From the IMG/VR virus record IMGVR_UViG_3300022932_000016, positions 19,906 through 83,905 of that record: DNA of 64,000 nt; one strand, written 5' to 3'. This document shows, one piece after another, positions 7,410 through 54,811 of the stretch. This DNA is from a virus. Taxonomy: Duplodnaviria > Heunggongvirae > Uroviricota > Caudoviricetes. Position numbers and translations under genes: made by a program. Under the pieces are notes generated by a model. The model was not told the DNA's origin. It ran no database searches and saw only the letters and a list, made by a program, of their open reading frames with translations. Each line of letters starts with the position of its first letter. Position 1 is the first letter of the stretch.

Positions 7410-9695
7410 TTAGCTTTCTGAGCTAGAGATTGAGGCAACAAGTTCTGGTTCTGTAACAACACCACCACGGAAGAATGATCCACGGATCACAACTTCGTTG
7501 CGTTGGAATGCTGAACGAACTTCACCAGCTACTTCGTATGATGCACGACCGTCTACGTCGTATGAGAGACCACCAGATGTTCGTCCTGTGAATGCGCTCA
7601 TGTCTGCGTAGAAGATTGGGTCAGTAACAGTAACCGCTACACCGTGTACTAGGAAAGTACGAGTGTCACCTGCGTTAAGCGTAGGTAGAAGGTCGCTAGG
7701 AACTGTTACGAAAGATGTACCGAATACTGAACCAGCGTTCAATTCAGCAACAAGACCGAAGTTTTGTTCTGTGATTGCTGATCGTAGGATTGCAGCCTTA
7801 GTCTTGTTTGATAGGATCAACTTACCAACAGTTGTGCTGTCAGCAGCTTCGGCTACAGCTTCTGCTAGGTCAGCAGTGCTTCCTGAGAACTCAACTGTTT
7901 GACCAGTCGCGTTAACAGCTTGTTGTAGACGAGCGATAACAAGTTGTGCGCGCTTTTTGTCGTAGTCGTTTGTGAATTGCTTAGCAATGTCACGCATGAT
8001 GTCAACAGCAGCGAACTTGATTGTTGCAAGTGCTACAGCTGTAACGTATGCAAGTTCTTCTAGTTCGTCGTCGTGTGGCGCGAAAGTTGGTTCACCGTAT
8101 GGCTTCAATAGGTCGTCGTCGTCGATTGGACCAGTTGTTAGGCCACCTGAGTAACCAGTTGATACGTTTTGCATGTCAACTGTAGTACCACGTGATAGCC
8201 ATGCGAACTTGATCGCGTCAGTTTCACGCCAGTCAGTTGCTTCAAGTAGTGCAGAGTAGCTGTTTAGCTTACCTTGTACTTCAGAAAGAACTTCAGGACC
8301 GATAACTAGGTTACCGAGGTCTTCTAGCTTGATTGAGTTTTCTACTTTACCAGCTTCTACAAGTGCGTCGTAGTTAACCTTGTTGATAGCACGCAATTCG
8401 TTGTATGCTTCTACGTTAAGGTCGCGTGTTGATGCAATAGCAAGAGCAAGTTGGTTCTTGATTGTAGCGTTTTTGCTTACAGGAGCTTCTTCAACAAACT
8501 CAGTTTCTTCAACTTGAGCGTCAAGGGCGTTCTTCACAGCTGCGTCAATCATAGCTTGTGCTTCTTCTTTTGTCATTTCAATTTCCTTTTTATTTTCTGT
8601 TTTTTCTTCAACAACTTCTTCAGTCGCTTCCACCTCTTCGGTTTCAGTTTCTTCAGTTCCGTTGTCGACTGTTTCGCTTGCTTCGTTGTCGCTTACGTCA
8701 ACCTTGATGGTGATTTCTGCGTCATCGTCTTTAGCGAGTTCAGCTTCCCATCGAGCTTCTCGAGCTTGACGTTCTGCTTTTTCCTCTTCTGTTTCGATGT
8801 ATTCGCTAGTGCGAGTGGTAGTGACCGTTTCGATCCATGTACCGTTCTCAGCTTTTTCGCGAGTAGTTTCTTCGACAGTTTCGGCTTCTGCTTCAGGTGT
8901 TTCAACTTCAGCTTCAGCTACTTCTTCAGCAACTTCTTCTTCGGCTTCAACTTCTTCGGCTTCTTTTTCGGCTTCGATTTCTTCTGCAACGACTTCGGTA
9001 TCTTCTTCAGGTACTTCAACCACTTCAGGGACTTCGACAACCTTTGTTTCTTTATCTTCTACTTCTGCAGGGGCTTCATTGAGTTTAACTTCAACGAACT
9101 CTTCAGTAGCTTCAGAAATCTTTGTTTCTTTTGCCATATTTTCCTCTTTAGGTGCGATTACTAATTTTTCCTCTAGTCCGTCGACTTTGAGACCCTCAGC
9201 TTTCGCTTTTTCTAAGGAATTGTGGACAGTTTCGTTAAACGAGTTAACGTGTGCGTTATAGTTGTTAGGAGTAACTACTTGACTTAACCCACAAAGCTCA
9301 GCGTTATTGTAGATGCCAGTATCAGGATCAAGGCGACCGAGAGTTTCAATACTAAAGCTGTTAGAGAAACCACCGACCAACAGGTCGTACGCAACTTTAG
9401 CGTATGCGTTTTCTTTAACTGCGTAAATAATCTTCTCAACAGTAACTTTGTTGCCAGATTTCTTAACACCAACAGTTTTTCCAATAAGACTTCGCAATGT
9501 GTCGTCGTGATCGGCAGTAAGCTGGTTACCGTAATCTTCGAGGCTCATTGAATCAATGTCGTATCGTGTGCCGTTGCGTTGCGTAGAATCGTCAGTAATA
9601 GTTAGACCGTTCGGGAATGATACAACGCCATCTCCCTCATCCGTGAAACCGCCTACTTCGGCAGTGACAACGTAACTATTTCTACTTTTTTCCAC
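7410..9695 (-). CDS. prohead protease - scaffold (Glu-rich coiled coil) - HK97-fold major capsid protein fusion (761 aa)
   Basis: N-terminal ~150 aa has an S78-like prohead protease pattern (ADHDDTLRSLIGK...GGFSNSFSIETLG). It is followed by a ~200-aa E/K/V-rich low-complexity region. The C-terminal ~320 aa is HK97-type MCP-like (DWRETDAIKFAWLSRGTTVDMQ...). One continuous ORF downstream of the portal. Confidence 0.8.
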   Translation of the reverse strand: MEKSRNSYVVTAEVGGFTDEGDGVVSFPNGLTITDDSTQRNGTRYDIDSMSLEDYGNQLTADHDDTLRSLIGKTVGVKKSGNKVTVEKIIYAVKENAYAKVAYDLLVGGFSNSFSIETLGRLDPDTGIYNNAELCGLSQVVTPNNYNAHVNSFNETVHNSLEKAKAEGLKVDGLEEKLVIAPKEENMAKETKISEATEEFVEVKLNEAPAEVEDKETKVVEVPEVVEVPEEDTEVVAEEIEAEKEAEEVEAEEEVAEEVAEAEVETPEAEAETVEETTREKAENGTWIETVTTTRTSEYIETEEEKAERQAREARWEAELAKDDDAEITIKVDVSDNEASETVDNGTEETETEEVEATEEVVEEKTENKKEIEMTKEEAQAMIDAAVKNALDAQVEETEFVEEAPVSKNATIKNQLALAIASTRDLNVEAYNELRAINKVNYDALVEAGKVENSIKLEDLGNLVIGPEVLSEVQGKLNSYSALLEATDWRETDAIKFAWLSRGTTVDMQNVSTGYSGGLTTGPIDDDDLLKPYGEPTFAPHDDELEELAYVTAVALATIKFAAVDIMRDIAKQFTNDYDKKRAQLVIARLQQAVNATGQTVEFSGSTADLAEAVAEAADSTTVGKLILSNKTKAAILRSAITEQNFGLVAELNAGSVFGTSFVTVPSDLLPTLNAGDTRTFLVHGVAVTVTDPIFYADMSAFTGRTSGGLSYDVDGRASYEVAGEVRSAFQRNEVVIRGSFFRGGVVTEPELVASISSSES

Positions 9696-11200: not shown

Positions 11201-11659
11201 ATGATCTCGTCAAAAGAACGTGAAAAACTTCGCGAAGACCTGTTAAAGGTTAGATTTCTTCACCCTAAGAAGTGCTTAGAGGAGTGTGTCTGTGGTCGCG
11301 ATGAGTTACTATGGTCTATTGACGAGTACACCGAGTTAGTTACTGCCGAGCGGGTGCGTTTCGCAGAGAAGAAGGCAGAAGACTACGGTGCGATATTGCA
11401 ACGTATGGGAGCGAACAAATGCGCGACTTGCAAAGACTACATGGCAGAAGCTGATGAAGTCTATTGTGACAGTTGCGATGATATTATTCACCTCAAGTGT
11501 GCAGGGTTCACTACTACAAGTAGCGCGTACGATGATGACGGCACCGTTCTATGTGTCGATTGCAAGAAGAAGGAAGAAGAGCGAATAGAAAACGAGCCCA
11601 TCGAAATGGACCCGTGGGGGAGCACAGAAAGTATCTTTGACGATAACTTACCGTTTTAG
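11201..11659 (+). CDS. zinc-finger protein with PHD-type C4HC3 spacing
   Basis: CATC-x11-CDSC-x4-H-x2-C-x17-CVDC, plus an upstream CLEECVC cluster. Confidence 0.55.
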   Translation: MISSKEREKLREDLLKVRFLHPKKCLEECVCGRDELLWSIDEYTELVTAERVRFAEKKAEDYGAILQRMGANKCATCKDYMAEADEVYCDSCDDIIHLKCAGFTTTSSAYDDDGTVLCVDCKKKEEERIENEPIEMDPWGSTESIFDDNLPF

Positions 11660-13868: not shown

Positions 13869-14040
13869 AGCGATAAAATAGTAACGTGCGCTAGTCACAG
13901 TGTCATAGACACCTCCAACTTGCGTTAATCGTATAAAGCAAAGGCCACCCTCTTACTTTCCAGTTCAGGGGTGGTTTTTGTTTGTCCTAGAGTTGACAAA
14001 AGGTATTGTATTTTTACTAAAAGTGCAATATACTTATTCT

Positions 14041-14292
14041 ATGAGCAAACCAGTGAAACAATACAACGCGGTCACGATGAAGAACGGTGTCACACGACAG
14101 GTTCCAACGCAGTACCACAAACCAAGCGGTAAGAAGAAGACCGTCTCTATGACGCTACCTATTACACTTACCGAGGTGGTAGAAAATCTCGCGAACATCG
14201 ACTTTAACGATAACAAGAGTAACGCGTACGAAACGCTATTATTAGAAGCTCTAGAAAGCAGGGGTCTACATGTACAGTCGAACGATAACTAA
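14041..14292 (+). CDS. hypothetical protein
   Basis: ORF. Start uncertain (13978 or 14041). Confidence 0.35.
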   Translation: MSKPVKQYNAVTMKNGVTRQVPTQYHKPSGKKKTVSMTLPITLTEVVENLANIDFNDNKSNAYETLLLEALESRGLHVQSNDN

Positions 14293-14734
14293 ATCAGCAG
14301 AGTACCGAGCGTTGCTTCCGACGCTCCTACGGGTAGAACACACCCTCAAAGGTAATCAGATAGCACGTGATATTAGTATCTTCAAAGACTTCACAAGCGG
14401 TCTCTACACGTACGAGTCACTCGGTCTACGCTATAACAACCTACGCGGTTCACGTATATCTCAGATCGTTAGGTCAATCGAGCACCAAATAAAGAACCCG
14501 AATGCACCGAACCCTATAATGACCGACCAGACAATGTGGCGACGCAACCGTAAAATCTACGAGCTTTATTGCACTGGTGAATATAGTTTCGCTGACCTAG
14601 GTAAAAAGTTCAATCTCGGTGACGCTCGCGTCAGTCAAATCATCAAAGATGTCACACACAACGAAGAACTCCGACGCTCCCGAGAGGCGTTTAATGAACC
14701 ACTTATAAGCGATATGGTCAACCACCGTGCGTAA
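14270..14734 (+). CDS. sigma-70 region-4-like HTH protein (two tandem HTH-like segments)
   Basis: SLGLRYNNLRGSRISQIVRSIEHQI and FADLGKKFNLGDARVSQIIKDV resemble sigma region 4 and ArpU/RinA-type HTH. Confidence 0.55.
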   Translation: MYSRTITKSAEYRALLPTLLRVEHTLKGNQIARDISIFKDFTSGLYTYESLGLRYNNLRGSRISQIVRSIEHQIKNPNAPNPIMTDQTMWRRNRKIYELYCTGEYSFADLGKKFNLGDARVSQIIKDVTHNEELRRSREAFNEPLISDMVNHRA

Positions 14735-15000
14735 CCTCCGATGTTTTTTCGGTATGCACGACTGGAGACCTATCGAAGAACCCCACGTCGAGTTCGTCAC
14801 TAAGTGGGTCGTATACGAAGTAACGCTTGCTGTATGCTCTCGTTGCGCAGACCTCGCAGAGGTAAGAAAGGACTATAACTGATGAGTCAAAAGCTATATA
14901 ACATACTGATAATCTGGGCATTCGCGTTAGTGACCGCTATCGTTATCACGTTCATCTATACTATGCTGAACCCGAAACAGCTTATACTGGGGTGCTAAAA

Positions 15001-15333
15001 ATGGTGCGCGACCCTCTCTTCGGTGACCAAGTTCACATTGCTGACCTATCTCCCGCTCGACGCGATAGCGTCCAACGCTGCCGAGACGTCCAAGAGTTAG
15101 TCGCACTCGCAGAAGAGCGCAACCTATACCGACACTATGCGTCAACCGAGCGCAACCTCATCATGTTTCACGCATATTGTACAGGTAAGATGACCTACGA
15201 GCAGATGTCCCATGTGTCCAAACTCGGTATATCAACCATCAGCAGTATTATGTCGCGTATCATATACCAGACGCTGGCCCATGAAGGCGACATCGTTATG
15301 AACAACGCTAAAGAAAGGAGCATACTCGTATGA
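15001..15333 (+). CDS. sigma-70 region-4-like HTH protein (paralog 2)
   Basis: TYEQMSHVSKLGISTISSIMSRIIYQ. ATG with GGGGTG RBS. The track start at 14992 is GTG. Confidence 0.5.
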   Translation: MVRDPLFGDQVHIADLSPARRDSVQRCRDVQELVALAEERNLYRHYASTERNLIMFHAYCTGKMTYEQMSHVSKLGISTISSIMSRIIYQTLAHEGDIVMNNAKERSILV

Positions 15334-15788
15334 GTAATCCCAATTACGAGCGCACCCTCGCTAGGGTTGAGCAAAATAGGCTCAACATCGTGACCAACAA
15401 GGTTCGCAAGTTGTACCGAGAGGACCTGTATGGTATGAACGTACGAGAGCTGTCTGTTTATTACCTGTCGACCCTTAAAGCTCACGAGAGTGAGCTTATC
15501 CGACGCGCCCCAGAACACCACAACATGTCACGCTCTATCGCCATGGTGCGTCAATATGCTTCTGGTCTCACATACGAACAGGTGGGCAAACTACACGAAC
15601 GGTCTCCCCAAAGGGTACGTCAGGTCGTAACAAAAATGATTTCGCGCTTGAGAAAGCTACACGAACAAGACCTATTGAAGCAAAGTAAGGTAATCGCTAC
15701 CATCGTCAACAATATCGCAACCGTTGAAGCAAACGGGTACGACTACGATGACCTCATGCTCAAGTTCTCACAGGTGAAGCGTATATGA
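15330..15788 (+). CDS. sigma-70 region-4-like HTH protein (paralog 3)
   Basis: LTYEQVGKLHERSPQRVRQVVTKMISRLRKL is a strong sigma r4-type helix-turn-helix. Confidence 0.6.
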   Translation: MSNPNYERTLARVEQNRLNIVTNKVRKLYREDLYGMNVRELSVYYLSTLKAHESELIRRAPEHHNMSRSIAMVRQYASGLTYEQVGKLHERSPQRVRQVVTKMISRLRKLHEQDLLKQSKVIATIVNNIATVEANGYDYDDLMLKFSQVKRI

Positions 15789-16177
15789 GTTTCGCGTCCA
15801 ACCGATCTCCGATACGCCTATCTGGTGTGTCGCGGGGTAAAATCGTCATAGGTGGGGGTGCTAAGCGTGGTGGTTTCACGATGTACGGTGGTCGTCGTCG
15901 CAAGCGTAACAAGATCATGCTCCCTTCGCTGTACGAAAACTACAAAGTCGTTCAGACCTCCGATACTCCTAGTTCCAAAAAAAATCCCAACTCGGCAGTG
16001 ACGAGAGCAGACCGTATCGGTGGGTTGATACTGTTCATCGTATTCTCTTTTCTGATACTCACACTCGCGATAGGGTGGATCATAGTACTCATTGTCTTCG
16101 CAGCACCGTTGATTGTCGTGCTTGGGTTCTTAGGCTTATTCGCGCTACCCTTTTTCGCGCTCACTCATCGAAAATAG
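15785..16177 (+). CDS. membrane protein (basic N-terminus, 2-3 C-terminal TM helices)
   Basis: Hydrophobic stretch LILFIVFSFLILTLAIGWIIVLIVFAAPLIVVLGFLGLFALPFFAL. Confidence 0.45.
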   Translation: MSFASNRSPIRLSGVSRGKIVIGGGAKRGGFTMYGGRRRKRNKIMLPSLYENYKVVQTSDTPSSKKNPNSAVTRADRIGGLILFIVFSFLILTLAIGWIIVLIVFAAPLIVVLGFLGLFALPFFALTHRK

Positions 16178-16224
16178 AAGAAAAAATTACGAGGGGGGTT
16201 GCTACGGCCTCACGCAATTAAAAA

Positions 16225-16255
16225 GATGAACGGGTTTTTGGCCCGCTCATCTCTT
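16225..16255. terminator. stem-loop terminator between convergent genes
   Basis: GATGAACGGG-TTTTTG-GCCCGCTCATC hairpin. On the minus strand it is followed by TTTTT, so it is mainly a terminator for gene 16266-16592. Confidence 0.5.
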
Positions 16256-16265
16256 ATATTGTCGC

Positions 16266-16592
16266 TTATTTGCTTACTGGGATAAAGTAGTAAACGCTTT
16301 TCTTGCTATTGGTTAGCTCAAGAATGTTTTTTACCTTGTGCGCTAGTAATTCTTTACCGTATACAATCTGCATAGTGGTTGTAACTACCTTGTCGCCCTC
16401 GGTGTAACGTATCACGTGTTGGCGGTTTACCTTTTTACCTGTTTCGTCTCGGACGCTTGATGCTTTACCCTCTACACTCTTTACAATTTGCTTGCGGTAA
16501 TCGCTTGCAACTTGTAGCTTGTGCTTAGGCACTGTAACTTTTGCTTTAGTTGTTTTAGTTTTAGCGGTTGTAGTAGCTTTAGTGCTTACCAT
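16266..16592 (-). CDS. small basic protein, paralog A
   Basis: 108 aa, Lys/Thr-rich N-terminus. About 60% identical to 17081-17377 (shared ...VPKHKLQVA... and GKKVNRQHVI...GDKVVT...GKELLAH... segments). Confidence 0.5.
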   Translation of the reverse strand: MVSTKATTTAKTKTTKAKVTVPKHKLQVASDYRKQIVKSVEGKASSVRDETGKKVNRQHVIRYTEGDKVVTTTMQIVYGKELLAHKVKNILELTNSKKSVYYFIPVSK

Positions 16593-16794
16593 AATTGTTT
16601 ACCTCGTGCGCTTATAATTATAATTGTAGTAGTCGCGCCCTGTCTACTGTTAATAGTATACTACACTATGCAATAAAAGTCAATACCTTTTATCAATAAT
16701 CTTTTATGGATTTATGGCGATGGTAACTCCGTCCTCAGTACCATGGAACTCTTGGCGTCGCCAACTGAAGCCGTACCCCAGGCACAGGCCAATG

Positions 16795-16829
16795 TTTCAC
16801 GTGAAATGGTTTTTTGTTTTCACGTGAAA
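16795..16829. repeat. two copies of perfect 12-bp palindrome TTTCACGTGAAA
   Basis: Copies at 16795-16806 and 16818-16829, 23 bp centre to centre. Operator-like. Confidence 0.6.
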
Positions 16830-16877
16830 TGTTTTCGGTCCCCTGCCTGCCGCCCCACCTTTTCATCGCCTTACCTA

Positions 16878-16960
16878 AGATTCATTTGTTAGCCTTAGCC
16901 GCCATGCGGGCGCCCCACTATGGCGATAGCCTGTAGCGGATTACATTTGTCTGGCTTAGC
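16878..16960 (+). repeat. two copies of the motif (T)ACATTTGT-N-GCCTTAGCC
   Basis: Copies at 16878-16901 and 16934-16960. Further copies at 17561-17590 and 19160-19185. Confidence 0.5.
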
Positions 16961-17080
16961 CCAGCAGCGGTGTTGATCTTATCCTGAGAACACAGGAGGG
17001 AATAGTGGTAGCCGTGTGCCAGGTCCCCTGCCTGAGCTTGGAGTAGCGTACCCCACCAAGTACGCTATCCTATCGCCTAA

Positions 17081-17377
17081 CTACGCTGTAGGTACGAAGT
17101 AGTAGACCGAGCCCTTACGATTAGTAAGTTCGAGAATGTCCTTGCTTGTGTGTGCAAGTAGTTCTTTCCCGTAGATAATCTGTAGGGTAGCTGTAACGAC
17201 TTTGTCGCCCTCAAGATAAGTAATGACGTGTTGTCGGTTTACTTTCTTGCCTGCTTCATCACGAACGCTGGTAGCCTTACCAGTAACGCTCTTGATAATG
17301 TTCTTGCGAAAAGTTTTAGCCACTTCCAACTTGTGGGCTGGTACTGTAACTTTAACTGGTGCTTTGGTTGCTGTCAT
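17081..17377 (-). CDS. small basic protein, paralog B
   Basis: 98 aa, homologous to 16266-16592. AAGGAGA RBS. Confidence 0.5.
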   Translation of the reverse strand: MTATKAPVKVTVPAHKLEVAKTFRKNIIKSVTGKATSVRDEAGKKVNRQHVITYLEGDKVVTATLQIIYGKELLAHTSKDILELTNRKGSVYYFVPTA

Positions 17378-17560
17378 AATATCTCCTTATGATTATGATG
17401 ATGTGGGTATCTTTACCACTGTAAGTATTATCTCATAGGCTGAGGTAAAATACAATACCTTTTTGGCACATAAGGATTCCCCTGGATACCGTCCGGATCG
17501 GCAGTAAAGCCTCGGAATAGGGGAGTATGCCACCTGGAGTGAGGCTTTGGCAACCAGCCT

Positions 17561-17590
17561 CTAGCGATTTACATTTGTTTGCCTTAGTTC
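17561..17590 (+). repeat. third copy of the TACATTTGT...GCCTTAG motif
   Basis: Sequence CCTCTAGCGATTTACATTTGTTTGCCTTAG closely resembles the copy at 16929-16958. Confidence 0.5.
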
Positions 17591-18304
17591 TGTGGACTAG
17601 GATGGTGTTATATCCAACTTATCCACGTTCTCATGGATTCTAGGAGCTCTGAGATAACGCGGTGTTGGGAGGCCTCTAGGACATGGATATATCCACCTGG
17701 GTCAGGCTACCAAACTATGCGTTTTGCGGTGAAATGCTCAAATCTGCTGGGAGTAATCCAGGTAGTACAGGATTCGGAAGTCTGGCTTCTTCCAGCACGG
17801 GTAGGAGAAGGTCGTTGGCAATCCAGAGCTTCAATTCAGGGAAATGGGCGGCTCAATGGCAAAAAAACGTCTGGATTCGGCAAAAAGGGGTGGTCGATGG
17901 CAAAAAGGGGGCGGATTCCTACTCCAAAGGTGTTCAGAAAAGTTGGAGATTGTGGCGTGCTGTCCGCCTTTTCCGTGGTTCTTCGTTGGCTTTGGCTATG
18001 GAGATGTGGGATAGGAGTGTTTCAGTAGATAAAACCCAATATGTTTTCCTGCGATTGCTCGGCATGGGATCCTCTGTAGAGCCTTTAGTATAACGTCTTG
18101 TACTCTCTATATAGCAATTAGACACAGGAGAAGGGTTCTGGCGAGATTTTTTTCGTTTCGGGTGAGCCTTTGTACGTTGGAGTACAATCGGTCTTCACAG
18201 GAGCGTTTCGTTGAGCAAATGGGTGCGTGCAAGCCTTTACTGGGTATGTGTATCCACCTATACGATAAGTACAAGAAGAATTGGTCTTTGCCGAGTTTTT
18301 CTGC

Positions 18305-18742
18305 CTAGTATTGAAACTGACCGAAACGTGAGATGAGTTCGCCTCGTGCTAGTTCAAGCACCCTTGCGATGTCCCTGTCGTTCAGTGCCGCTCGGTTGCT
18401 TGGTAAACCTAGCTGTGCCGTATCGTTCAGTTTGACACGACTGAAACTGTTTAGAAGCCTACCGTACTTTGCATAGTTCATGCGATTGTACACTATCACT
18501 TCCTCTATATCGAAGAACTTGGTGTAAATGGTTATGCCAGTTCTTTTTTCTACTTTTTGAATGTAGATGTTCTTTGCCTGCTCTGTGTCGATGTGCGGTC
18601 CCGCTTTGACTAGCTGAATGACCTTGCGACCGTTGACTTTGATGCCGTGGTAAATACCAACCCGACTGTCCTTACCGTACTTTTCACTCGGTATAAAGCT
18701 CATTGCCGTGTCGGTAATTTGCTTTAGATTGTGCTGTTGCAT
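18305..18742 (-). CDS. hypothetical protein with C-terminal HTH-like segment
   Basis: 145-aa ORF. Its 5'UTR (ATAATCATAATCATCATAAGGGAAG) resembles that of gene 17081-17377. TATAAT at 18772-18777 (rc). Confidence 0.45.
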   Translation of the reverse strand: MQQHNLKQITDTAMSFIPSEKYGKDSRVGIYHGIKVNGRKVIQLVKAGPHIDTEQAKNIYIQKVEKRTGITIYTKFFDIEEVIVYNRMNYAKYGRLLNSFSRVKLNDTAQLGLPSNRAALNDRDIARVLELARGELISRFGQFQY

Positions 18743-19159
18743 AGTGATACTTCCCTTATGATGATTATGATTATAGCGTTTGTATCTGTTGCTATTAAGT
18801 ATAGTATAACACAGGCTGGGGTATTTTGCAATAGGTTTTATGTAGATTAGGACTGCGTGGCTTCAGTTGGATTCAACGGCAGCAGCGGGGGTTTGAGCCG
18901 TGATAAGATACGTTAAAGCCTGGTCTTTACATCAGGCGTGAAATGGGTTGTAATAGTTGCATCCTTCGTGTATAATTATGTCTAGCGAGTAGCTCTATAG
19001 TAGCAACGTAGGTTGAGCTAGTAGAGCAGTCGCGGCAGTTGAGTACTCCCTTTATAGGGGGTTCTTTTAATTGTAAGGGCAAGAACAGATTATAGCCGAG
19101 GTTTTCGAGCCTGTCTCCAGCACAACGATATAGCGGTGTGGGGCGGTCGAATGCGCCTT

Positions 19160-19185
19160 TGCGTATACATTTGTTTTAGCCTGCC
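19160..19185 (+). promoter_or_regulatory. fourth TACATTTGT motif; candidate promoter of the plus-strand early operon
   Basis: TTGTTT-16nt-CATAAT about 40 nt upstream of the ATG at 19227. Confidence 0.35.
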
Positions 19186-19226
19186 CCCAAATCATAATAA
19201 TTATCATTCTAAGAAAGGAAGCGATA

Positions 19227-19451
19227 ATGGCAAACACACAACACGATAACGTGGGTGAGGTTCTAGTCCTTAAAGACTTTACAACACCTGACGTTGCCTT
19301 TTCACTAAACGCAACCGTTGCCAGCGATGGCTCGATTGTACTGTATGACTACAAGCGTACGGGCTCAAATCACGATAGCAAAATCATTGTTATCAACGAG
19401 GACGAGTTCGACCAGTTAGCTTCATACCTAGGCTATATCAAAGAGGTATAA
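19227..19451 (+). CDS. hypothetical protein
   Basis: AAGGAAG RBS. First gene of the plus-strand block. Confidence 0.5.
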   Translation: MANTQHDNVGEVLVLKDFTTPDVAFSLNATVASDGSIVLYDYKRTGSNHDSKIIVINEDEFDQLASYLGYIKEV

Positions 19452-22427: not shown

Positions 22428-23633
22428 ATGAAAATCTATGACGACCAGGACAAGCTAGACGCTCTCGTGAAATCCTTGAAGCGTCATGGCTATACTTCAT
22501 ACGGTGTTGCCCTACAGCAACTCGGTACTCGATGGACAGATGAAAAAGGTGTAATCGGCTTCACGAACCCACAAGGTATCGTGATTAACGGCACCCTTAA
22601 TATCAACGAGCAATCTTTGGTAGCCCGTCACGAAGTATTGCACACGCTTCTACGGCACCTCGATGACACAATCTGGGGTGACGGACGTGACGACCACGAA
22701 GTTCGTAATATGGCAGGCGACCTTGAGTTGTCCCACTACTACGATGATGTAGACAGCCGACACTTTAATATCGGTGGTCCTCTTGCAGGTGGTTTGAACG
22801 TACAACGTCGAGCCCACGGCAAGTACTTCGGTATGGACTGTGTCGAGATTTACGATGACCTAATCAAGAACGGCAAAGCTAAAGGCAAGCCGCTTGGTGA
22901 TTGTATTCAAGGCGATGGGCCAAAGGGTAAAAGTAGTGGGGCGAGCGCAGGCGACCTCGATGACAAGGGTAAGAAGGAAACATCTGTTTCGCCTAGTCCC
23001 CAGCCAGCGAAGATGTCTGACGAATTGAAGAAGGAACTCTTGAACAAGATTAAGGTAGAGCGACAGGAACGCTACGAGCAATCAACCATTGAACGTGGTC
23101 TGCGTGCGGAAGTAGATATTGACCCAGAGGTCGAGTTGTTCTACTCCCTTAACCGTTATTTCATCAAAGAGCAACAGCTTAGCCGAAACAAGAGTTATGC
23201 ACGACCGAACAAGAAATATCAAGGCGCAATCGTCAAGAAGGGCCGACGTAAGACTCGCAGCCCAGGTAAGACGTTAGTGGTGTATATCGACCGTTCGGGA
23301 AGTATGAGCGACGAAAAGACTGGTAAAGCGGAAGCAATTCTTGCAAACACAGTCAAAAGGCTCAACCACGTTACCGTTGTAACTAAATACTTTAGCGATG
23401 AAGTATCAATGGACGGTAATATCGGTGGTGGTACAAATTATTCTGCCGTTATTGACGACATAATGATTAACAAGTACCGAGATGTGGCAATCGTAACCGA
23501 CAACGACAACGATGGACGTGCGAATATCGCAGACGTTGATGCCGTGTGGATCGTATCGGTTGAACCAGGATACCCAACGAGAATTGCTCAACGCTTTAAT
23601 GCGACAATGCTTGTGGAAACGGAGATTAGGTAA
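22428..23633 (+). CDS. VWA-domain protein with N-terminal HExxH putative metallopeptidase domain (DUF2201-like)
   Basis: ARHEVLHTLLRH HExxH motif. C-terminal MIDAS (VVYIDRSGSMSD...GGTNY). Adjacent to MoxR, a known pairing. Confidence 0.75.
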   Translation: MKIYDDQDKLDALVKSLKRHGYTSYGVALQQLGTRWTDEKGVIGFTNPQGIVINGTLNINEQSLVARHEVLHTLLRHLDDTIWGDGRDDHEVRNMAGDLELSHYYDDVDSRHFNIGGPLAGGLNVQRRAHGKYFGMDCVEIYDDLIKNGKAKGKPLGDCIQGDGPKGKSSGASAGDLDDKGKKETSVSPSPQPAKMSDELKKELLNKIKVERQERYEQSTIERGLRAEVDIDPEVELFYSLNRYFIKEQQLSRNKSYARPNKKYQGAIVKKGRRKTRSPGKTLVVYIDRSGSMSDEKTGKAEAILANTVKRLNHVTVVTKYFSDEVSMDGNIGGGTNYSAVIDDIMINKYRDVAIVTDNDNDGRANIADVDAVWIVSVEPGYPTRIAQRFNATMLVETEIR

Positions 23634-24748: not shown

Positions 24749-24947
24749 CGAAGATGATAATTATATCTATGTTGATATTCCTGGGACCAATATGACGGTT
24801 CAGGTGAAATGTGAATATGAAGGAATTGTAGTTGACGTTTTCGAGGTAGCCTCTGACGACAGCGTTGAGCCTATAGCCTCTACCTACAAGTTCTACAGTG
24901 AGCTTGGTGTAGAGTTGAAACAGACCTCGAGTGAGGCGACCGAATGA
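24735..24947 (+). CDS. hypothetical small protein
   Basis: GAGGAGGAAGGAG RBS. Confidence 0.35.
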   Translation: MTMNNEDDNYIYVDIPGTNMTVQVKCEYEGIVVDVFEVASDDSVEPIASTYKFYSELGVELKQTSSEATE

Positions 24948-40343: not shown

Positions 40344-40378
40344 AAAGAGAGACTAACCTACGGGCTGGTCTCTTTTTC
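40344..40378 (+). terminator. putative terminator
   Basis: AAAGAGAGAC...GGTCTCTTTTT hairpin plus T-run. Overlaps the 3' end of the convergent gene. Confidence 0.4.
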
Positions 40379-40894
40379 GTTGTTGTATTGAAAGTTGGTG
40401 CGCGCGAAGTCACCGAATAGTTGCATAGCCCACTGGTCATAGATGTACGCGGCTTGTATAGGGTCGTCATCTGCCCAAACCCGCTTGATCTTCATACCAG
40501 GGATTTGAATAAATACAGCCCACTTGTTAAGGCGTGAGTCCCAAGAGACTCCTTTATAGCCAGAAGTATTTTGCTTACCGATGGCTACGTTCTGCGCATT
40601 CTGCTGCCGAGTGACTTTTCTCAGATTGCTCTTGCGGTTATCGAAACGGTTGCCGCTTTTGTGGTCGATCATCTGACTATTCATAATGAAGTTGTGCAGA
40701 CCGATTTGCTTCTCACCAACCACCGTGATTGCATACCCGCTTCTACCGACCAACCAGCGACGCTTCAAGACACGCTCAGCGTCATCTTCGTCAACGATTG
40801 TCTTAGCGCGTACCTTACCGTCTTTATCTAACAAAAACAGGGTGCAAACCCCGTCTTTGATGATATGTGGGTTACCTGTTAACTTTTTACCCAT
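40358..40894 (-). CDS. HNH homing endonuclease with AP2 DNA-binding domain
   Basis: HNH_3-like motif (HNFIMNSQMIDHKSGNRFDNRKSNLRKVTRQQNAQN). AP2-like motif (SGYKGVSWDSRLNKWAVFIQ...RVWADD...AAYIYDQWAMQLFGDFARTNF). Confidence 0.8.
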   Translation of the reverse strand: MGKKLTGNPHIIKDGVCTLFLLDKDGKVRAKTIVDEDDAERVLKRRWLVGRSGYAITVVGEKQIGLHNFIMNSQMIDHKSGNRFDNRKSNLRKVTRQQNAQNVAIGKQNTSGYKGVSWDSRLNKWAVFIQIPGMKIKRVWADDDPIQAAYIYDQWAMQLFGDFARTNFQYNNEKETSP

Positions 40895-41858: not shown

Positions 41859-42374
41859 TTAGGGTTTGCTAACGTGGTAGTAAGCACAGACTTCACCAAC
41901 AATAGAAGTGAAATCGTTATCAGCCAAGAAATCGTCCATCTCTTCTACGTCCCAATGGTCAACGTGTGTCTCAAAATCATTACCTTCGGCTCCTGCGTGC
42001 TGGTCGTGATGAACTACAGGGAAGCAAAGCAGCAAAGTTTTTGAATGCTCAATCAATTTTTTAATGAGGGTTTTCGCGTCTTCTTTTTCCATGTGCTCAA
42101 TCATATCTGCCGCAATGATAAGATCGTAGTCTTTATACTCGTGAGTACGCGCGTCTTCGACAATTACTTCATCGTATTTATTTTCAAGGTTGAACATCTC
42201 AACGTACGGCTCGAAAACCTCGAGCGCGGTCCAGTGCTGGGAGGGCATACGACCCATTAGCGAATATGTACCAACACCCGCACCAATGTCGAGCACGGTT
42301 TTGAAATCATCTTCATGGTCTAGAAGCCACTGTCTAATAATATGTTTGTTCTCGAAATCTGAAACGCCTGCCAT
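41859..42374 (-). CDS. class I SAM-dependent methyltransferase
   Basis: Motif I (VLDIGAGVGTYS) and motif post-II (DLIIAADMIEHM). Confidence 0.75.
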   Translation of the reverse strand: MAGVSDFENKHIIRQWLLDHEDDFKTVLDIGAGVGTYSLMGRMPSQHWTALEVFEPYVEMFNLENKYDEVIVEDARTHEYKDYDLIIAADMIEHMEKEDAKTLIKKLIEHSKTLLLCFPVVHHDQHAGAEGNDFETHVDHWDVEEMDDFLADNDFTSIVGEVCAYYHVSKP

Positions 42375-42386
42375 TATGACTCTTTT

Positions 42387-43781
42387 CTATTTATGTTTGA
42401 ATCGTTCGGTGCCATCTGACTTGAACGACTTGAATTGATTTGTGACACCCGCAGTGATAACCCTACCAGCGTAGAAGGTTCGCAGCAAAAAGCCATAAAT
42501 TGGCATTTCGACTGTGATTTTCTTACCGCTATCGAAGTATCGGGTGTAAATACCCCTACAAATGTCGATAATGTCTTCACGAGAGCCACCGACTACACCG
42601 CAGTTGAGTATGTGTTGGCGGTTTCGCGCGGTGAAAGTGCGATATGGTTCGACGGTTGAGTGCTGTCGCAACCATCTACTTTGTGAAGGCACACCCTGCT
42701 CGATACCAGAATAAATCTTTCCAGGTTGCATATCTCTGAACGGGTTATTGACCACCTCGACATCGGTTGAATCTACGCAGAAAACATTATCAATTTCGGG
42801 GTGCTGTTTCAGGTAGCGGTAAATGCTAAGCCACCGCTGAAAGTACGGGTTTAATACGCTTTCAACTTTTATGTGGGTGACCTGCTCGGTATCGGGTTCG
42901 TCGAAGCAATCGTGCAGAAGCACTAGCTTTTCGCCCTGCAATGAATCAATGAGCGGCTTCATCGCGCTATAGTCTGCTGACCAGTTCACCTTGCGTTGAG
43001 GGTCTTCGTGCGAAGTAAAGTAAGAAGCGATAATTACGTTATTCATTCCTGCACTATCAGACTTCTTAACCTCTCGGTAATCAATGTACTCGCTGGATTT
43101 TAGCGATTCGCGGTATAATTTCGCGTTGTTCGCGAGACCAGTTCGACGTGCGTGCTGTTCGATTGAACTTGAAACCTCTTGGTATTCGTCCATGCTGTAA
43201 ATAAGGTTCGAACTATCGGGCACGTCCATTGCTCTGAACGTAGTAAGGCCAGCGTTGAAGATGCGATTAGTCCATGCGGTGTGTTCAAACATAGAGATAC
43301 CGAATCGCGGGTCTAAGCCACCCACCTTTTCAAGCACTACCTTGTTAGCATAAATCATGCAACCGCGAGTATGCGAGTAAGCCACGATTGTGCTGTCGCG
43401 ATATATCTCAAGCATATCGGTTAGTTGTTTTGCTGGGTTATTTGCGAACTCCCGAAACTGGTACATAAGGTGGGGCTCTTCGCTATCGACGTACGGTTTC
43501 CACCAGTCTTTCACCTTTGGGTATGTGTCGTCATCGAACAGGAAGAAGTCAGTCGCACCGCGTTCTTCGAGCAATTCGAGACATTTGTTTTTGACCCTTG
43601 CGACACCACCCCGTTCAGGGAAAACGTAATCAGCTTCTTTGGGCGCATTTTCATCGTGGTCTGATACAACGACAAGCACGGCACCTTTTGGCAGATACTT
43701 TTTAATTTCTTTGTATGTTTTCTTGAAAACATCTGGTCTTTTGTAGGTTGATATTGCAACCCCGACTACAGGTTCATTCAT
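42387..43781 (-). CDS. glycosyltransferase (GT-A/GT2-like N-terminal domain plus additional C-terminal domain)
   Basis: VVGVAISTYKRPD...FLFDDDTYP (DxD). Confidence 0.65.
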   Translation of the reverse strand: MNEPVVGVAISTYKRPDVFKKTYKEIKKYLPKGAVLVVVSDHDENAPKEADYVFPERGGVARVKNKCLELLEERGATDFFLFDDDTYPKVKDWWKPYVDSEEPHLMYQFREFANNPAKQLTDMLEIYRDSTIVAYSHTRGCMIYANKVVLEKVGGLDPRFGISMFEHTAWTNRIFNAGLTTFRAMDVPDSSNLIYSMDEYQEVSSSIEQHARRTGLANNAKLYRESLKSSEYIDYREVKKSDSAGMNNVIIASYFTSHEDPQRKVNWSADYSAMKPLIDSLQGEKLVLLHDCFDEPDTEQVTHIKVESVLNPYFQRWLSIYRYLKQHPEIDNVFCVDSTDVEVVNNPFRDMQPGKIYSGIEQGVPSQSRWLRQHSTVEPYRTFTARNRQHILNCGVVGGSREDIIDICRGIYTRYFDSGKKITVEMPIYGFLLRTFYAGRVITAGVTNQFKSFKSDGTERFKHK

Positions 43782-44437
43782 AGTAATTGATCCAAGAACT
43801 TCTTATATTTTTCGAACTTTACGTTACTTGTTGATAGGTAATCAGTAACGTCTTCGATTTTAATGTTTTTAACATCATCATACGGCACTGAGCTTTGCCC
43901 GTCAAGCGGGTTATAGAAGTTGAAGTACAGGCTTTTAATTTGCAGATCAAAATCCGTGTCTACGATGTTGTTGGTGACGTAGAGTGCTTTTTGCTTCTCG
44001 ATAACAACAGGGATATGGAGCTCGTAGTTTGTGTCATTCATATCGTTCTCCGTGAGATACCTACCCGTTTTCATTAACGAGGTTTTGTACGGGTCGTTCG
44101 CTCTGCTTTTTATTTTGTCAGCTAACGTCGGGTACTTTCGGTCGTGAACTACCTGCGGGTTGAACGGTGCGGTCAGATAGACATCGTCCATCATAAGAAT
44201 GAACTGGTCGCTCAACTCTGGCATTCGAACTGCGAGTGCAAACTTGAGCATTTGGTCAGCGAACTTACCCGCTTGAGAGCGGTGATGAACGTGGATAATT
44301 TCACCAGCGAGCCGTGCTGGGGGTTTATCCCCGATGATGTATACGGTGCCTAAGCTGGGGTAGAACTTCTTTAACAAGCGAACCGAATAAACCAATTCAT
44401 CGCTGTTCGTATGCTTGTAGAGATAGACCGCGTCCAT
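43778..44437 (-). CDS. Stealth CR2-like sugar-phosphate transferase domain protein
   Basis: NSDELVYSVRLLKKFYPSLGTVYIIGDKPP resembles the Stealth conserved region 2 signature. LMMDDVY acidic motif. Confidence 0.45.
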   Translation of the reverse strand: MDAVYLYKHTNSDELVYSVRLLKKFYPSLGTVYIIGDKPPARLAGEIIHVHHRSQAGKFADQMLKFALAVRMPELSDQFILMMDDVYLTAPFNPQVVHDRKYPTLADKIKSRANDPYKTSLMKTGRYLTENDMNDTNYELHIPVVIEKQKALYVTNNIVDTDFDLQIKSLYFNFYNPLDGQSSVPYDDVKNIKIEDVTDYLSTSNVKFEKYKKFLDQLL

Positions 44438-45107: not shown

Positions 45108-45542
45108 ATGATAAACTGTAGAAAAGCAAAGGTTAAAAACGTGGCAAAAGTACTATCAACTTCTAAGTGGAAAACCACTAGGCAAAAATGGGTAAAGAAA
45201 AACCCAGTGACCGAGTTCAGTGAAGAGGGCGACACAGGTTGGGTGTGTGGTTTTTGCGGTGAACCAGTCTGGAAGTACGAGTTATCGCTTGACCATATTC
45301 TAAGGGTGCAAGACTACCCAAAGTTGAAGTACGACCACCACAATCTACGGCCAATGCACCAGCGTTGCAACTCGAACCTCGACGCGATCTGGCGAACCGA
45401 AAAAGGTCGCACCACTTTCGTTAAGCGCAAGAGAGAAGAACGCTCTTACAAGATACGCTGTATCAATGAAACGATTGAGTGGTACGAACTTGCTATCAGT
45501 ACTGGTGCCATTCCATACACTGCCAGCAAAAATCTTCTGTGA
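45108..45542 (+). CDS. HNH endonuclease
   Basis: CGFCGEP...LSLDHILRV...HHNLRPMHQRCN. Confidence 0.65.
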   Translation: MINCRKAKVKNVAKVLSTSKWKTTRQKWVKKNPVTEFSEEGDTGWVCGFCGEPVWKYELSLDHILRVQDYPKLKYDHHNLRPMHQRCNSNLDAIWRTEKGRTTFVKRKREERSYKIRCINETIEWYELAISTGAIPYTASKNLL

Positions 45543-46820: not shown

Positions 46821-47249
46821 ATCTTTTCTTGTCTTTTCTTTATGAGTCGTGCCGTGTTGTAAAGGTTCTAATTGGTGGAAGCGTCGGGTATTGCACCCGA
46901 GTCCAGCGGTTTAATAGTTAAGCGTCTACAAGTTTGTTCTGTTTAAGACAGACATCTAGGTGGTGTGTTCACTTTTTATTTTGCGTGGTGGTGAGAAACC
47001 ACGACAACGACATTTATAGGGCGTATGACGTTTTATACGCTAATGAAGAACTTGTATAAAACGCACTGCTAGTAAGCAGCTGTGGCAAGAACTGGGCTGG
47101 CAACGAATTGCGCAACTGCGTTCTTAACTTTTGAAACGAATGTGTTTGCATTTAAGTGTGATTGAACTAATCATGTACTTGCAACTTAACTGTTAGGTAC
47201 TACTGTCGAAATCTATATCGCCCCCGTTACATCTATTATACACCTCTTG

Positions 47250-49888: not shown

Positions 49889-50215
49889 TTATAGCTGAAT
49901 ACCATTATCTTTACGGTTGTGACACCTTCGACACAGCCATTGCAGGTTACTTTGAACGTACCGCAGGTCAGGACGAACGCTACGTTTGATGATGTGGTCG
50001 ACATCGGTTGCGGGGTTACCACAGAACGAACACTTCGCATCGGGGTTATTAGCCACGAAGATAGCACGAGCTTCTTGCCATAAATCATAGTGCTTACCGC
50101 GTTGCTTGATTGCTTTGCGCGGTTTCGCTTCTACCTCTTTACGGGGTCGCTGTGAGCATTGGAACGAATAGTGCTTATCAACCGCTTTGCAGTATTTGCA
50201 GACGGTAGCTTTCAC
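49889..50215 (-). CDS. HNH endonuclease (terminase-associated type)
   Basis: CKYC...CSFCG...DVDHIIKRS...LQWLCRRCHNRKD. Adjacent to the packaging genes. Confidence 0.75.
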   Translation of the reverse strand: MKATVCKYCKAVDKHYSFQCSQRPRKEVEAKPRKAIKQRGKHYDLWQEARAIFVANNPDAKCSFCGNPATDVDHIIKRSVRPDLRYVQSNLQWLCRRCHNRKDNGIQL

Positions 50216-53896: not shown

Positions 53897-54811
53897 TTAT
53901 ACTTTCTTATGCTCTTCGCGAAGGATAAGCGGAGCGGTATTACGCCAGTTGATTCGGTGGTGAATGCGAAACGCGTTGTTGTCTTTCTCTTTACCTGCAC
54001 CTTTTATAGCTGAGGTATTGTAGAGAACCGAGAACTTTGCACCTGACGGGTGAGTAATAATTGTGTACGCGGTCTTGGTATATGTACCGAGCGATTTGTA
54101 CATCTCAGACATACCGCCAGTGTTTGTCTGGGTGGTCTTCTGATTAAGCGCGATGAATGCTGTCGTCAAGAACAAGAACCCTTGGTGTGCGAGCGACGTG
54201 TAGGTGTTTACGTCTTCATTGATACGACCGACAAACTTGAACCGTCTGTCTGTCGAGCAAATGAAGCTGTTCATCACTTTGCGTCTGAACTGATCGGAGA
54301 CCATTTTCGAACCACCGCCACCGATATAGTCACCAGACTGTGCCATACAGAGTGAGTACATCATGGGTACTGACTTGAAATAGTCGAGCATTACGTCAAA
54401 TACTTTATCGAGGGTCTGCTCTTCTGGCAGTGGTGAAAGCATAAGCGATGAGTATTCGATGTTTTCGTTCATTCGCCACCTGAAACTATCGTAGTCGTCA
54501 TCAAGCTGGATAAAGTACTTGTAACCGAGCTGTTCTGCAATGTCAAAGGACGCGTTGCGAGCGTAGAAAATCGTTCGTCGCTCACCTGAGTTGTCGACTT
54601 CATCGAAACGCTCTGCTATTTCATTTTTGCTAAAGGTTACGACCCTATCATCACCCCATATTCTGCGGTACTCGAGAAGGGTTGCATCTTCAGTATCCAC
54701 GACTAACTTCCAATCACCTGTGTACCCGTGACGCTTGAGCGTGTTTACGGTTACTTGGTTATTCGGTCGCCCGTGGGTCAGGATCAGTGCTACGAAGTTT
54801 TTGTTTTCCAT
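53897..54811 (-). CDS. hypothetical protein, possible nucleotide-sugar transferase-like (DxD)
   Basis: VALILTHGRPN...QLDDDYD. Weak call. Confidence 0.3.
   Translation of the reverse strand: MENKNFVALILTHGRPNNQVTVNTLKRHGYTGDWKLVVDTEDATLLEYRRIWGDDRVVTFSKNEIAERFDEVDNSGERRTIFYARNASFDIAEQLGYKYFIQLDDDYDSFRWRMNENIEYSSLMLSPLPEEQTLDKVFDVMLDYFKSVPMMYSLCMAQSGDYIGGGGSKMVSDQFRRKVMNSFICSTDRRFKFVGRINEDVNTYTSLAHQGFLFLTTAFIALNQKTTQTNTGGMSEMYKSLGTYTKTAYTIITHPSGAKFSVLYNTSAIKGAGKEKDNNAFRIHHRINWRNTAPLILREEHKKV

Follow-up and report, generated by a model that had tools for sequence, protein, structure and literature searches.

The 2.6 kb of DNA considered here (positions 16593-19226) lies in a 64 kb stretch, referred to below as the window, of the IMG/VR virus record IMGVR_UViG_3300022932_000016; about 20 kb of the phage genome lies beyond it. 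It is suggested that a novel tailed phage has its early-transcription control region, or early-to-middle switch, in these 2.6 kb, rather than a single exotic element of a new type. This reading, which is based on comparative sequence analysis, is assigned a probability of roughly 0.55. A preliminary description, made from the sequence alone, had proposed a regulatory hub concerned with lysis and an early switch, or an origin or iterons. The hub was borne out: four conserved host-type promoters were found, together with a repeated promoter-like motif of constant orientation, operators of palindromic form and hairpins whose stems covary, and these elements, their conservation, their orientation and the absence of genes around them are direct observations. 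The lysis switch was not, since no lysis gene is nearby and the amidase is encoded at 60 kb.

Relatives of the window were available as metagenomic contigs only, about 10 of which were compared for three intervals, designated region A (16593-17080), region B (17378-18304, with a 0.85 kb non-coding core at 17456-18304) and region C (18743-19226). L001-L005 are five IMG/VR contigs with approximately 80 % DNA identity to the window, two of them 84-86 kb in length; L006-L010 and L021-L025 are more distant Logan and ENA contigs obtained via exact-protein look-ups. Alignment-based scans of viral, metagenome and genome collections yielded no relatives beyond L001-L005, and the window DNA had no match, in near or distant searches, among 50,697 deposited phage records. 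The family of small genes described below comprised only 11 protein clusters in a collection of 5.8 billion sequences, and had no match in 185,579 reference genomes. The window encodes a tape-measure protein, a portal, long collagen-like tail fibres, glycosyltransferases (one of them TET-associated) and an amidase with a G5 domain. The phage, novel, tailed and of about 85 kb, belongs to a lineage that is essentially uncharted.

The genes that frame the region, and a hairpin at its left border, are as follows.

16266-16592, minus strand: paralog 1, a small early gene of 108 amino acids, with codon-periodic substitutions (p 7e-17).
17081-17377, minus strand: paralog 2, a small early gene of 98 amino acids, predicted to adopt a mostly beta fold and without known relative.
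18305-18742, minus strand: an early gene of 145 amino acids, an open reading frame (ORF) with codon periodicity.
19227-19451, plus strand: first gene of the rightward operon, which extends to about 27860.
16225-16251, no strand assigned: hairpin GATGAACGGG-TTTTTGG-CCCGCTCATC flanked by A and T runs, read in the sequence.

The three minus-strand genes are those described previously, the first lying just outside the start of the 2.6 kb region. Two of them had been described as paralogs of about 60 % identity; the paralogy stands, with the figure raised to 74 % protein identity over 90 residues and about 70 % at the DNA level. Paralog 1 had no match to any Pfam or PHROG family. In comparisons with L001, L003 and L004, substitutions in the coding sequences were concentrated in one codon phase (p 1e-6 to 1e-25), and the insertions and deletions (indels) inside the three minus-strand genes were multiples of 3, except that the 145 amino acid gene, the 3' end of which aligns poorly, also had gaps of 8 columns there. 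Regions A, B and C, by comparison, showed no 3-base periodicity (p 0.18, 0.32 and 0.9, over the spans 16700-17080, 17460-18200 and 18840-19226, respectively) and differed from the relatives by dozens of indels of 1-2 nucleotides (nt) and by hairpin-sized insertions. Two window ORFs in region B, of 131 and 136 amino acids, were broken or shifted in every relative, and a protein-coding region B is ruled out by these unkept ORFs together with the lack of periodicity. The roughly 1.9 kb said to be without a convincing ORF is thus indeed without codon periodicity, contains frame-breaking indels and has no ORF that is kept in the relatives; no supported ORFs filling the region emerged from the comparison. 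Nevertheless, regions A, B and C are 74-80 % identical to the relatives, versus 61 % for the adjacent gene of 145 amino acids, and they hold invariant blocks of about 30 nt each. The three small leftward genes are evidently separated by non-coding DNA that is nonetheless under selection. The hairpin at 16225-16251, which is conserved in the relatives and was missed by a simple terminator scan on account of one stem mismatch, is likely to be a two-way intrinsic terminator between paralog 1 on the minus strand and a Mor-like operon on the plus strand. In L003-L005, an insert at the equivalent of window position 18209, within the non-coding gap, consists of an ORF of 64 amino acids with its own promoter.

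Each of the three leftward genes is preceded by a promoter, and a fourth copy of the promoter signature was found to the left of the region.

16655-16683, minus strand: early promoter P1, TTGACT-17-TATACT preceded by AAAAGGTA, with hexamers conserved in relatives.
17427-17455, minus strand: early promoter P2, TTGTAT-17-GATAAT preceded by AAAAGGTA, with invariant hexamers and a variable spacer in relatives.
18803-18831, minus strand: early promoter P3, TTGCAA-17-(TG)TATACT preceded by AAAACCTA, identified from a promoter scan and the upstream signature.
14004-14034, plus strand: fourth signature copy, AAAAGGTATTGTAT...TATACT, heading an operon of three small helix-turn-helix proteins.

By their sequences, P1-P3 are near-consensus sigma-70/sigma-A type promoters, one per leftward gene, and they show the behaviour expected of real promoters because their hexamers are fixed while their spacers vary in the relatives. 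The upstream signature AAAA(G/C)(G/C)TATTG is common to all three, and for the four early promoters together the shared sequence can be written AAAAGG-TATTGnnn-N17-TATAcT. The early promoter pattern, [TC]ATTGnnn-N16-18-[TGC]A[TC]A[AC]T, had nine matches in the 64 kb, and the A-tract signature (AAAAGG or AAAACC) was present at only four of them, namely 14004(+), 16685(-), 17457(-) and 18833(-). In all, 15 promoter-like sites were observed in 3.5 kb, compared with 5.2 expected. Strong Shine-Dalgarno sites are situated downstream of the early promoters, and they argue against a Bacteroidetes host. A search for Spo0A 0A boxes near the promoters gave just one TGNCGAA in the region, and a role for such boxes was rejected. 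Strong early promoter clusters driving many tiny genes are found in the virulent phages SPO1 (the host-takeover module), T5 and T7 (the early regions). The present region resembles them in having several near-consensus host-type promoters in 5 kb, each driving one small gene of unassigned function with a strong ribosome-binding site. It differs in that the genes are set apart by conserved non-coding stretches of 0.4-0.85 kb, which have repeated elements of their own, and in that the window has no sequence similarity to any deposited phage searched.

The operon headed by the fourth signature copy is of interest with respect to what follows. The gene at 14270-14734 passes the Pfam threshold for Mor (PF08765, 25.7 bits versus a cut-off of 24.9), and 15330-15788, part of a pair of paralog-like helix-turn-helix proteins at 14992-15788, has a weak match to sigma-70 region 4. 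Weak Mor matches were also obtained with genes of the relatives.

The second class of candidate promoter is a composite motif of approximately 70 nt, which, from copies pooled over all lineages, consists of a GCCyCAC box followed by (T)AGCC-N12-CATTTG-yyn-GCCTTnGCCC. The copies in the region are listed below.

16851-16904, plus strand: copy 1, box CGCCCCAC at 16851-16858, CATTTG at 16883; 33.1 bits.
16911-16965, plus strand: copy 2, box CGCCCCAC at 16911-16918, AGCC-N12-CATTTG at 16944; 40.7 bits, the best in the window.
17545-17603, plus strand: copy 3, inverted box GTGAGGC at 17539-17545, CATTTG at 17572; 36.4 bits.
19138-19206, plus strand: copy 4, inverted box GTGGGGCG, CATTTG at 19168, -35-like TTGTTT and -10-like CATAAT at 19193-19198; 15.1 bits.

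The four copies noted previously were all recovered, three of them scoring 33-41 bits with a weight matrix to which only the copies of other phages had contributed, and for which the shuffle maximum was 18.8 bits. The last, as had been observed, lies just upstream of the plus-strand operon, 59 nt before the first ATG. Matches to the matrix were found at 16944, 17572, 16883, 24948, 27273, 27576, 22981 (15.9 bits) and 19168, all on the plus strand and all between 16.8 and 27.6 kb; apart from those at 16883, 16944 and 17572, they lie inside or directly before the rightward operon. Every relative has the motif at the orthologous places and in an unchanged orientation, and in every lineage one copy shortly precedes the gene with which the rightward operon begins. 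A GCC(C/T)CAC box lies 25-40 nt upstream of six copies, in either orientation, and these account for 6 of the 13 such boxes in the window. A -10-like hexamer lies 16-18 nt past TTGTyT in two copies, 17572 and 19168, as well as in the orthologs of both. For copy 3 this is TAGGAT (17598-17603), 17 nt past TTGTTT, with -10-like hexamers at the equivalent positions in L001, L002-L005 and L010; for copy 4 the -10-like hexamer is overlapped by the palindrome TCATAATAATTATCA at 19192-19206. Copy 4 is likely to be the promoter of the rightward operon. A class of activator-dependent promoters is the best fit to the motif as a whole, because of its orientation, its position and its orientation-free upstream box, and by analogy the neighbouring Mor-like proteins would be the obvious candidates for the activator. 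Of the copies at 22981 and 24948, both on the plus strand with an upstream GCCyCAC box, one is inside a DUF2201-like gene and the other falls exactly on a stop/start junction, with TGA overlapping ATG at 24944-24947.

In phage Mu, early genes lead to Mor, which acts at the middle promoter, and thence to C, which acts at the late promoters. The present phage is similar in that a Mor-family protein is encoded beside the region, under an early-type promoter, and in that the candidate sites combine a weak or atypical -35 with an upstream recognition element. Work on Mu describes the Mor and C promoters as having a -10 and lacking a -35, with a site centred at -43.5 (PMC4390567, PMC2582627), and one of these studies places a 16-bp dyad, bound by a Mor dimer, at that position (PMC4390567). 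The differences are that three paralogous Mor-like genes are present here, that the motif is about 70 nt long with up to eight copies (five of them strongly supported), and that the best copies lack a -10. If the TTG is taken as the -35, AGCC-N12 would lie at about -54 to -39, and it is not a clear dyad.

Several other identities were considered for the motif and set aside. The consensus sequences for sigma-54, Bacteroidetes-type and sporulation sigma factors had, by eye, the wrong spacing or conflicted at non-conserved positions. A resemblance between the ops/RfaH element (GGCGGTAGnnTG) and GGCGGTCGAATG at 19142-19153 was treated as chance, being confined to this one copy of the motif. A CRISPR-like or ToxI-like array was rejected for the tandem copies, which are degenerate and irregularly spaced.

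The third component is a predicted small RNA in region C.

18948-18976, plus strand: promoter of the small RNA, TTGTAA-17-TATAAT, with equivalents in L001, L003, L004, L006 and L007.
18981-19073, plus strand: small RNA of about 90 nt, in which a short linker joins a long 5' hairpin (closed by GCGA/UCGC) to an intrinsic terminator; identified by scan and folds.

The terminator consists of a hairpin and U run at 19045-19072 (stem 19045-19062), about 70 nt past the promoter. The promoter-terminator cassette is present at the same place in L001, L003, L004, L006 and L007, with stem sequences that are almost entirely different. Five lineages each fold alone into one two-hairpin layout, with single-sequence z scores of -2.1 to -6.8. 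For the close relatives, the alignment fold, measured against column shuffles, gave z -5.4 on the plus strand and -1.2 on the minus strand; the corresponding values for coding controls ranged from +1.1 to -3.1. A covariance model recovered close relatives only, as the diverged ones are unalignable and their helix registers differ. Since the registers differ, covariation is argued from the independently equal folds and not from column counts. A search of Rfam 15 gave no family in 16100-19400 at the gathering threshold and nothing meaningful at E values up to 10, the only match in the window being a transfer-messenger RNA (tmRNA). The element has the features of an independent small RNA gene, namely its own promoter, its own terminator and a structure kept while the sequence changes, and the interpretation of 18981-19073 as a new, discrete plus-strand small RNA of about 90 nt is supported by these comparisons. 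The AGTAG-rich stretch remarked on earlier (18965-19040) is the body of this RNA. The suggestion that the region could encode non-coding RNAs therefore holds for 18981-19073; it does not extend to the 0.85 kb gap of region B, where no conserved or stable fold was found. A possible target in the leader of paralog 1, with a pairing energy of -36 kcal/mol (z -3.3) in the window, was not kept in the relatives (z -0.4 to -2.0).

Short promoter-to-terminator RNAs are known from other phages, examples being lambda oop, lambda 6S RNA and P22 sar. The small RNA is like these in its constitutive-looking sigma-70 promoter, its structured body of about 90 nt and its strong intrinsic terminator, as well as in its location, which is flanked by transcription units that diverge and has a long operon immediately downstream. 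It differs from them in lacking any sequence or Rfam relationship, antisense gene overlap or conserved target. Read-through control of the lambda PR'-tR' type would not be required, because the downstream operon appears to have its own promoter. Between the terminator and motif copy 4, a hairpin at 19119-19140 has kept its pairing in L001 and L003 although the sequences differ (CACA.CG...CG.TGTG versus GTCG...CGAC); the block 19075-19225 had an alignment-fold z of -3.5. In L007, an ORF at 2400-2950, upstream of the small RNA, appeared by eye only to be HNH-homing-endonuclease-like.

Region B, the longest of the non-coding intervals, contains an array of short words.

17468-17920, no strand assigned: array of seven GGATT/AATCC words, consensus yGGAT(T)C(GG), with three GGCAAAAA tracts, within 17456-18304.
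17489-17503, no strand assigned: invariant core site CGTCCGGATCGGCAG, holding the only CCGG in the window.

The three GGCAAAAA repeats seen previously are at 17858, 17879 and 17899, with one further copy in the 64 kb. Seven GGATT/AATCC words in the 927 nt of region B compare with 0.6 per kb in the rest of the window, and L006 and L010 have 12-14, in both orientations. The words are 6-9 bp long, occur in both orientations (33 plus versus 22 minus over six lineages) and are spaced 15-160 nt apart; they are gained and lost singly between relatives, with the density kept. The plus strand is G-rich, with a GC skew of +0.2 to +0.3 across 17.5-18.3 kb, and region B is the window maximum for both GGA and GGAT (GGA 25 per 700 nt versus a mean of 4.8). 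Such words, and GATC, are avoided genome-wide, GGA/TCC occurring at 0.4-0.5 on both strands, GATC at 0.4 and GGAT at 0.27 of expectation. For CCGG, about 88 sites would be expected in the window and the sole site is at 17493, in GTCCGGATCGGCA, which departs slightly from the repeated word as seen at 17868 (GTCTGGATTCGGCA) and is kept in L001-L004, L006 and L010. ACC/GGT occurs in the window at 1.58 of expectation, and avoidance of CCGG does not extend to L007 and L008, two of the distant relatives. A large structured RNA of the GOLLD/ROOL type was rejected for region B: alignment-fold z scores for four sub-blocks were -0.7 to -1.6 or positive, within the control range, single-sequence z scores were -0.9 to +1.4, and there was no Rfam match. 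From the sequence, we read region B not as a folded RNA but as a probable multi-site protein-binding platform, which might be an origin, a scaffold coupled to transcription or the template for a decoy RNA. It also contains a perfect palindrome, TGGATATATCCA, at 17685-17696 and, downstream of the gene of 145 amino acids, a small hairpin, GTAT-CCACCT-ATAC, at 18249-18262; both contain words akin either to the GGAT array or to the CCACC loop of a hairpin in region A.

The remaining features of region A are palindromes and that hairpin.

16752-16764, no strand assigned: palindrome TTGGCGTCGCCAA, kept in L001 and L004, lost in L002, L003 and L005.
16793-16831, no strand assigned: two palindromes TTTCACGTGAAA, at 16795-16806 and 16818-16829, identical to the central 12 bp of parS.
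17043-17071, no strand assigned: hairpin whose loop, CCCACC(AA), is conserved and whose stem covaries, located about 10 nt past the stop codon of paralog 2.

The TTGGCG-N-CGCCAA inverted repeat of the preliminary description is the first of these, and the two perfect palindromes are, as stated there, 23 bp apart; they occur nowhere else in the window. The duplication of GGTCCCCTGCCTG is likewise real, though its copies are at 16837 and 17022, not 16841 and 17013. The hairpin at 17043-17071 has the same loop on at least six different, fully Watson-Crick stems (in the window, L001, L002-L004, L010, L007, L023 and L024), and by sequence comparison the covariation is clear evidence of a hairpin, formed in RNA or in single-stranded DNA; a U tract is lacking.

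A Fur-type element was found at the rightward operon. The palindrome TCATAATAATTATCA, over the putative -10, has one mismatch to the Fur-family 7-1-7 operator consensus, TGATAATnATTATCA, which may not be that of the host. With this consensus, 12 matches at up to 3 mismatches were found versus 2.8 expected. An AU-rich (A/T)ATCATAAT element is common to all four leaders. As with Fur-family operators, the box overlaps a putative -10, with weaker copies in the leaders of the leftward genes; unlike them, the AU-rich element follows the strand of each gene and could be a translational enhancer. The Fur-type box is, for the present, only a lead.

These elements can be arranged in a scheme of the following kind. 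On infection, host RNA polymerase would fire the consensus promoters, so that the Mor-like activators are made together with the small RNA and the three small proteins. The composite-motif sites would next be activated by a factor of the phage, for which any one of the three Mor/sigma-region-4-like proteins is the simplest candidate. Of these sites, the copy at 19168 would switch on the rightward operon, while those at 16883, 16944 and 17572 would drive rightward transcription against the leftward early genes and so aid their shut-off by convergent transcription. The parS-like pair, the Fur-type box and the GGAT(T)C array might serve as platforms for dimeric or multimeric DNA-binding proteins that tune or couple the switch. 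The timing of these events, the identity of the activator, the antisense shut-off and all of the protein-DNA contacts are what we infer from the arrangement of the sequences.

A number of observations weigh against this interpretation. Two of the three best-scoring copies of the motif, at 16883 and 16944, have no recognizable -10 hexamer, and they may be binding sites only or may be read by a different form of polymerase. The copy at 19168 scores below the shuffle maximum, and was accepted because it is near-invariant at the same place in the relatives and has its own GCCyCAC box; those at 27273 and 27576, within what is plausibly a gene, score barely above that maximum. A 16-bp dyad of the kind at the Mu Mor site is lacking from the motif, a simple scan found no plus-strand terminator after region A or B, and the portal and endolysin proteins, having no match in the deposited phage records, do not identify the host. 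The absence of a -10 from two strong copies would be accommodated if the motif were not a promoter at all, but a repeated operator or decoy, or an RNA-level processing or antitermination signal in long rightward transcripts. Consistent with this are the tandem arrays of two to four copies, 47-90 nt apart, in region A of the relatives, the copy on a stop/start junction in the operon and the copies within genes. We nevertheless consider it on the unlikely side, in view of the strict co-orientation with downstream genes and the fixed copy before the first gene of the operon in every lineage; an upstream box occurring in either orientation is typical of DNA recognition rather than of an RNA signal, and no consistent hairpin was found within the motif.

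Region B can also be explained in other ways. It could be a replication origin or another DNA-level nucleoprotein platform, in which a protein of the phage or the host would occupy the invariant GTCCGGATCGGCA core along with the many GGAT(T)C words. Bending of the DNA would be due to the A-tracts of GGCAAAAA, and activation to transcription from the flanking divergent promoters. The density of the words in both orientations, their turnover at constant density, the retention of one CCGG site in six lineages of a genome that avoids GGAT and CCGG, the lack of an RNA fold signal and the location between divergent promoters, adjoining an operon with ATPase genes, are all in keeping with this. Well-known iteron-type origins of phages and plasmids are lambda ori, P1 oriR and P4 ori/crr, and region B is like these in being non-coding, with one short word repeated in both orientations, A-tracts and flanking promoters. 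The words are, however, short and irregularly spaced, and classical iterons (direct repeats of 17-22 bp with regular spacing) were not found in region B. DnaA boxes (TTATCCACA with at most one mismatch) do not cluster, numbering nine in the window versus 14.6 expected, with one in the region; no marked AT-rich stretch that might act as an unwinding element is present (G+C 0.44-0.51); the GC skew carries no origin signal; and no Pfam replication-initiator, helicase or primase match was obtained, near region B or elsewhere, among the window ORFs scanned. An origin or similar platform is accordingly regarded as rather unlikely. Less probable again, and in our estimation quite doubtful, is that transcription starting at the 17572 copy of the motif turns region B into a decoy, a G-rich RNA of about 0.7 kb that is not translated and whose many GGA/GGAUUC words titrate an RNA-binding protein in the manner of CsrB and CsrA. 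The correctly spaced -10 of that copy in the window, L001, L002-L005 and L010 would allow it, as would the plus-strand skew, the GGA maximum and the turnover of sites at kept density, as in sponge RNAs. In addition, GUACAGGAUUC at 17762-17772 resembles RUACARGGAUGU, the CsrA consensus from systematic evolution of ligands by exponential enrichment. On the other hand, the words occur on both strands, they are conserved past GGA, as GGATTC, a feature that binding by CsrA leaves unexplained, neither a terminator nor presentation in hairpin loops was found, and there was no Rfam match to CsrB, RsmY or RsmZ at E values up to 10.

For the palindromes of region A, the alternative is that TTTCACGTGAAA represents functional sites of the ParB family, occupied by a clamp of host ParB/Spo0J (or a Noc-like protein) or by an unrecognized phage ParB that is thereby brought to the early region, and acting in positioning, silencing or, as in phi29, spore entrapment. 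The sequence of parS, TGTTTCACGTGAAACA, is confirmed in the ParB literature. The central 12 bp of the 16-bp parS palindrome tGTTnCACGTGnAACa are exact in both copies, and copy 1 with its flanks, TGTTTCACGTGAAATG, agrees at 14 of 16 parS positions. One or two copies are kept in the window, L001-L004, L010, L022 and L023, near early promoters. There is also a precedent in phi29, the genome of which has five parS sites that are bound by host Spo0J (PMC2731898). In contrast to parS centromeres, however, most copies have not retained the outer bases by which parS is told apart. Copy 2 has, by eye, four mismatches to TGTTTCACGTGAAACA and was not among the matches at up to three mismatches. A 16-bp match with two mismatches is not rare by chance, another being present at 8022. 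The palindrome is absent in L006, L007, L008 and L024, no ParB-domain or ParA match was found in the approximately 65 window ORFs scanned, and a CACGTG-centred palindrome could be used by any dimeric helix-turn-helix repressor. We judge ParB binding to be unlikely. More speculative still is the proposal that region B is a new kind of phage 'word array', a decoy or assembly platform acting as DNA or as a G-rich transcript, which together with the parS-like and Fur-like sites couples the early switch to host physiology; we hold this to be improbable. If true, 0.5-0.9 kb of non-coding DNA would concentrate GGAT and CCGG words, including the invariant CCGG core, in a genome purged of them, and would offer many sites to a protein of the host or the phage.

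Other features were noted in the window. A tmRNA at 46873-47225 on the minus strand, a full-length match to Rfam RF00023 (72.9 bits, E 2e-26), was not called by ARAGORN, and no transfer RNAs were found. Genes for a methyltransferase-domain protein, two glycosyltransferase-like proteins and a TET-associated glycosyltransferase are present (41859-44437 and 53897-54811); this set suggests that the DNA may be hypermodified, which may relate to the skewed word usage. An ORF of 152 amino acids at 11201-11659 on the plus strand has a PHD-finger-like zinc-binding match (PF00628, 26.4 bits versus a cut-off of 24), which is unusual for a phage. HNH genes are located at 40358-40894, 45108-45542 and 49889-50215. 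An ORF of 761 amino acids was considered as a candidate phage RNA polymerase; it had no PDB or PHROG match, and no such polymerase was identified.

Taken together, the data provide a compact map of what is probably early transcription control in an uncharted phage lineage: a signature for the early promoters, a second, candidate class of promoter for which a Mor-like protein is a plausible activator, a new small RNA and candidate sites for host factors. Within this map, the single conserved CCGG in an otherwise CCGG-free window would mark a cis-element that outweighs restriction avoidance. Current ideas are not overturned by these findings; rather, known principles of phage gene regulation would be extended to a new lineage.

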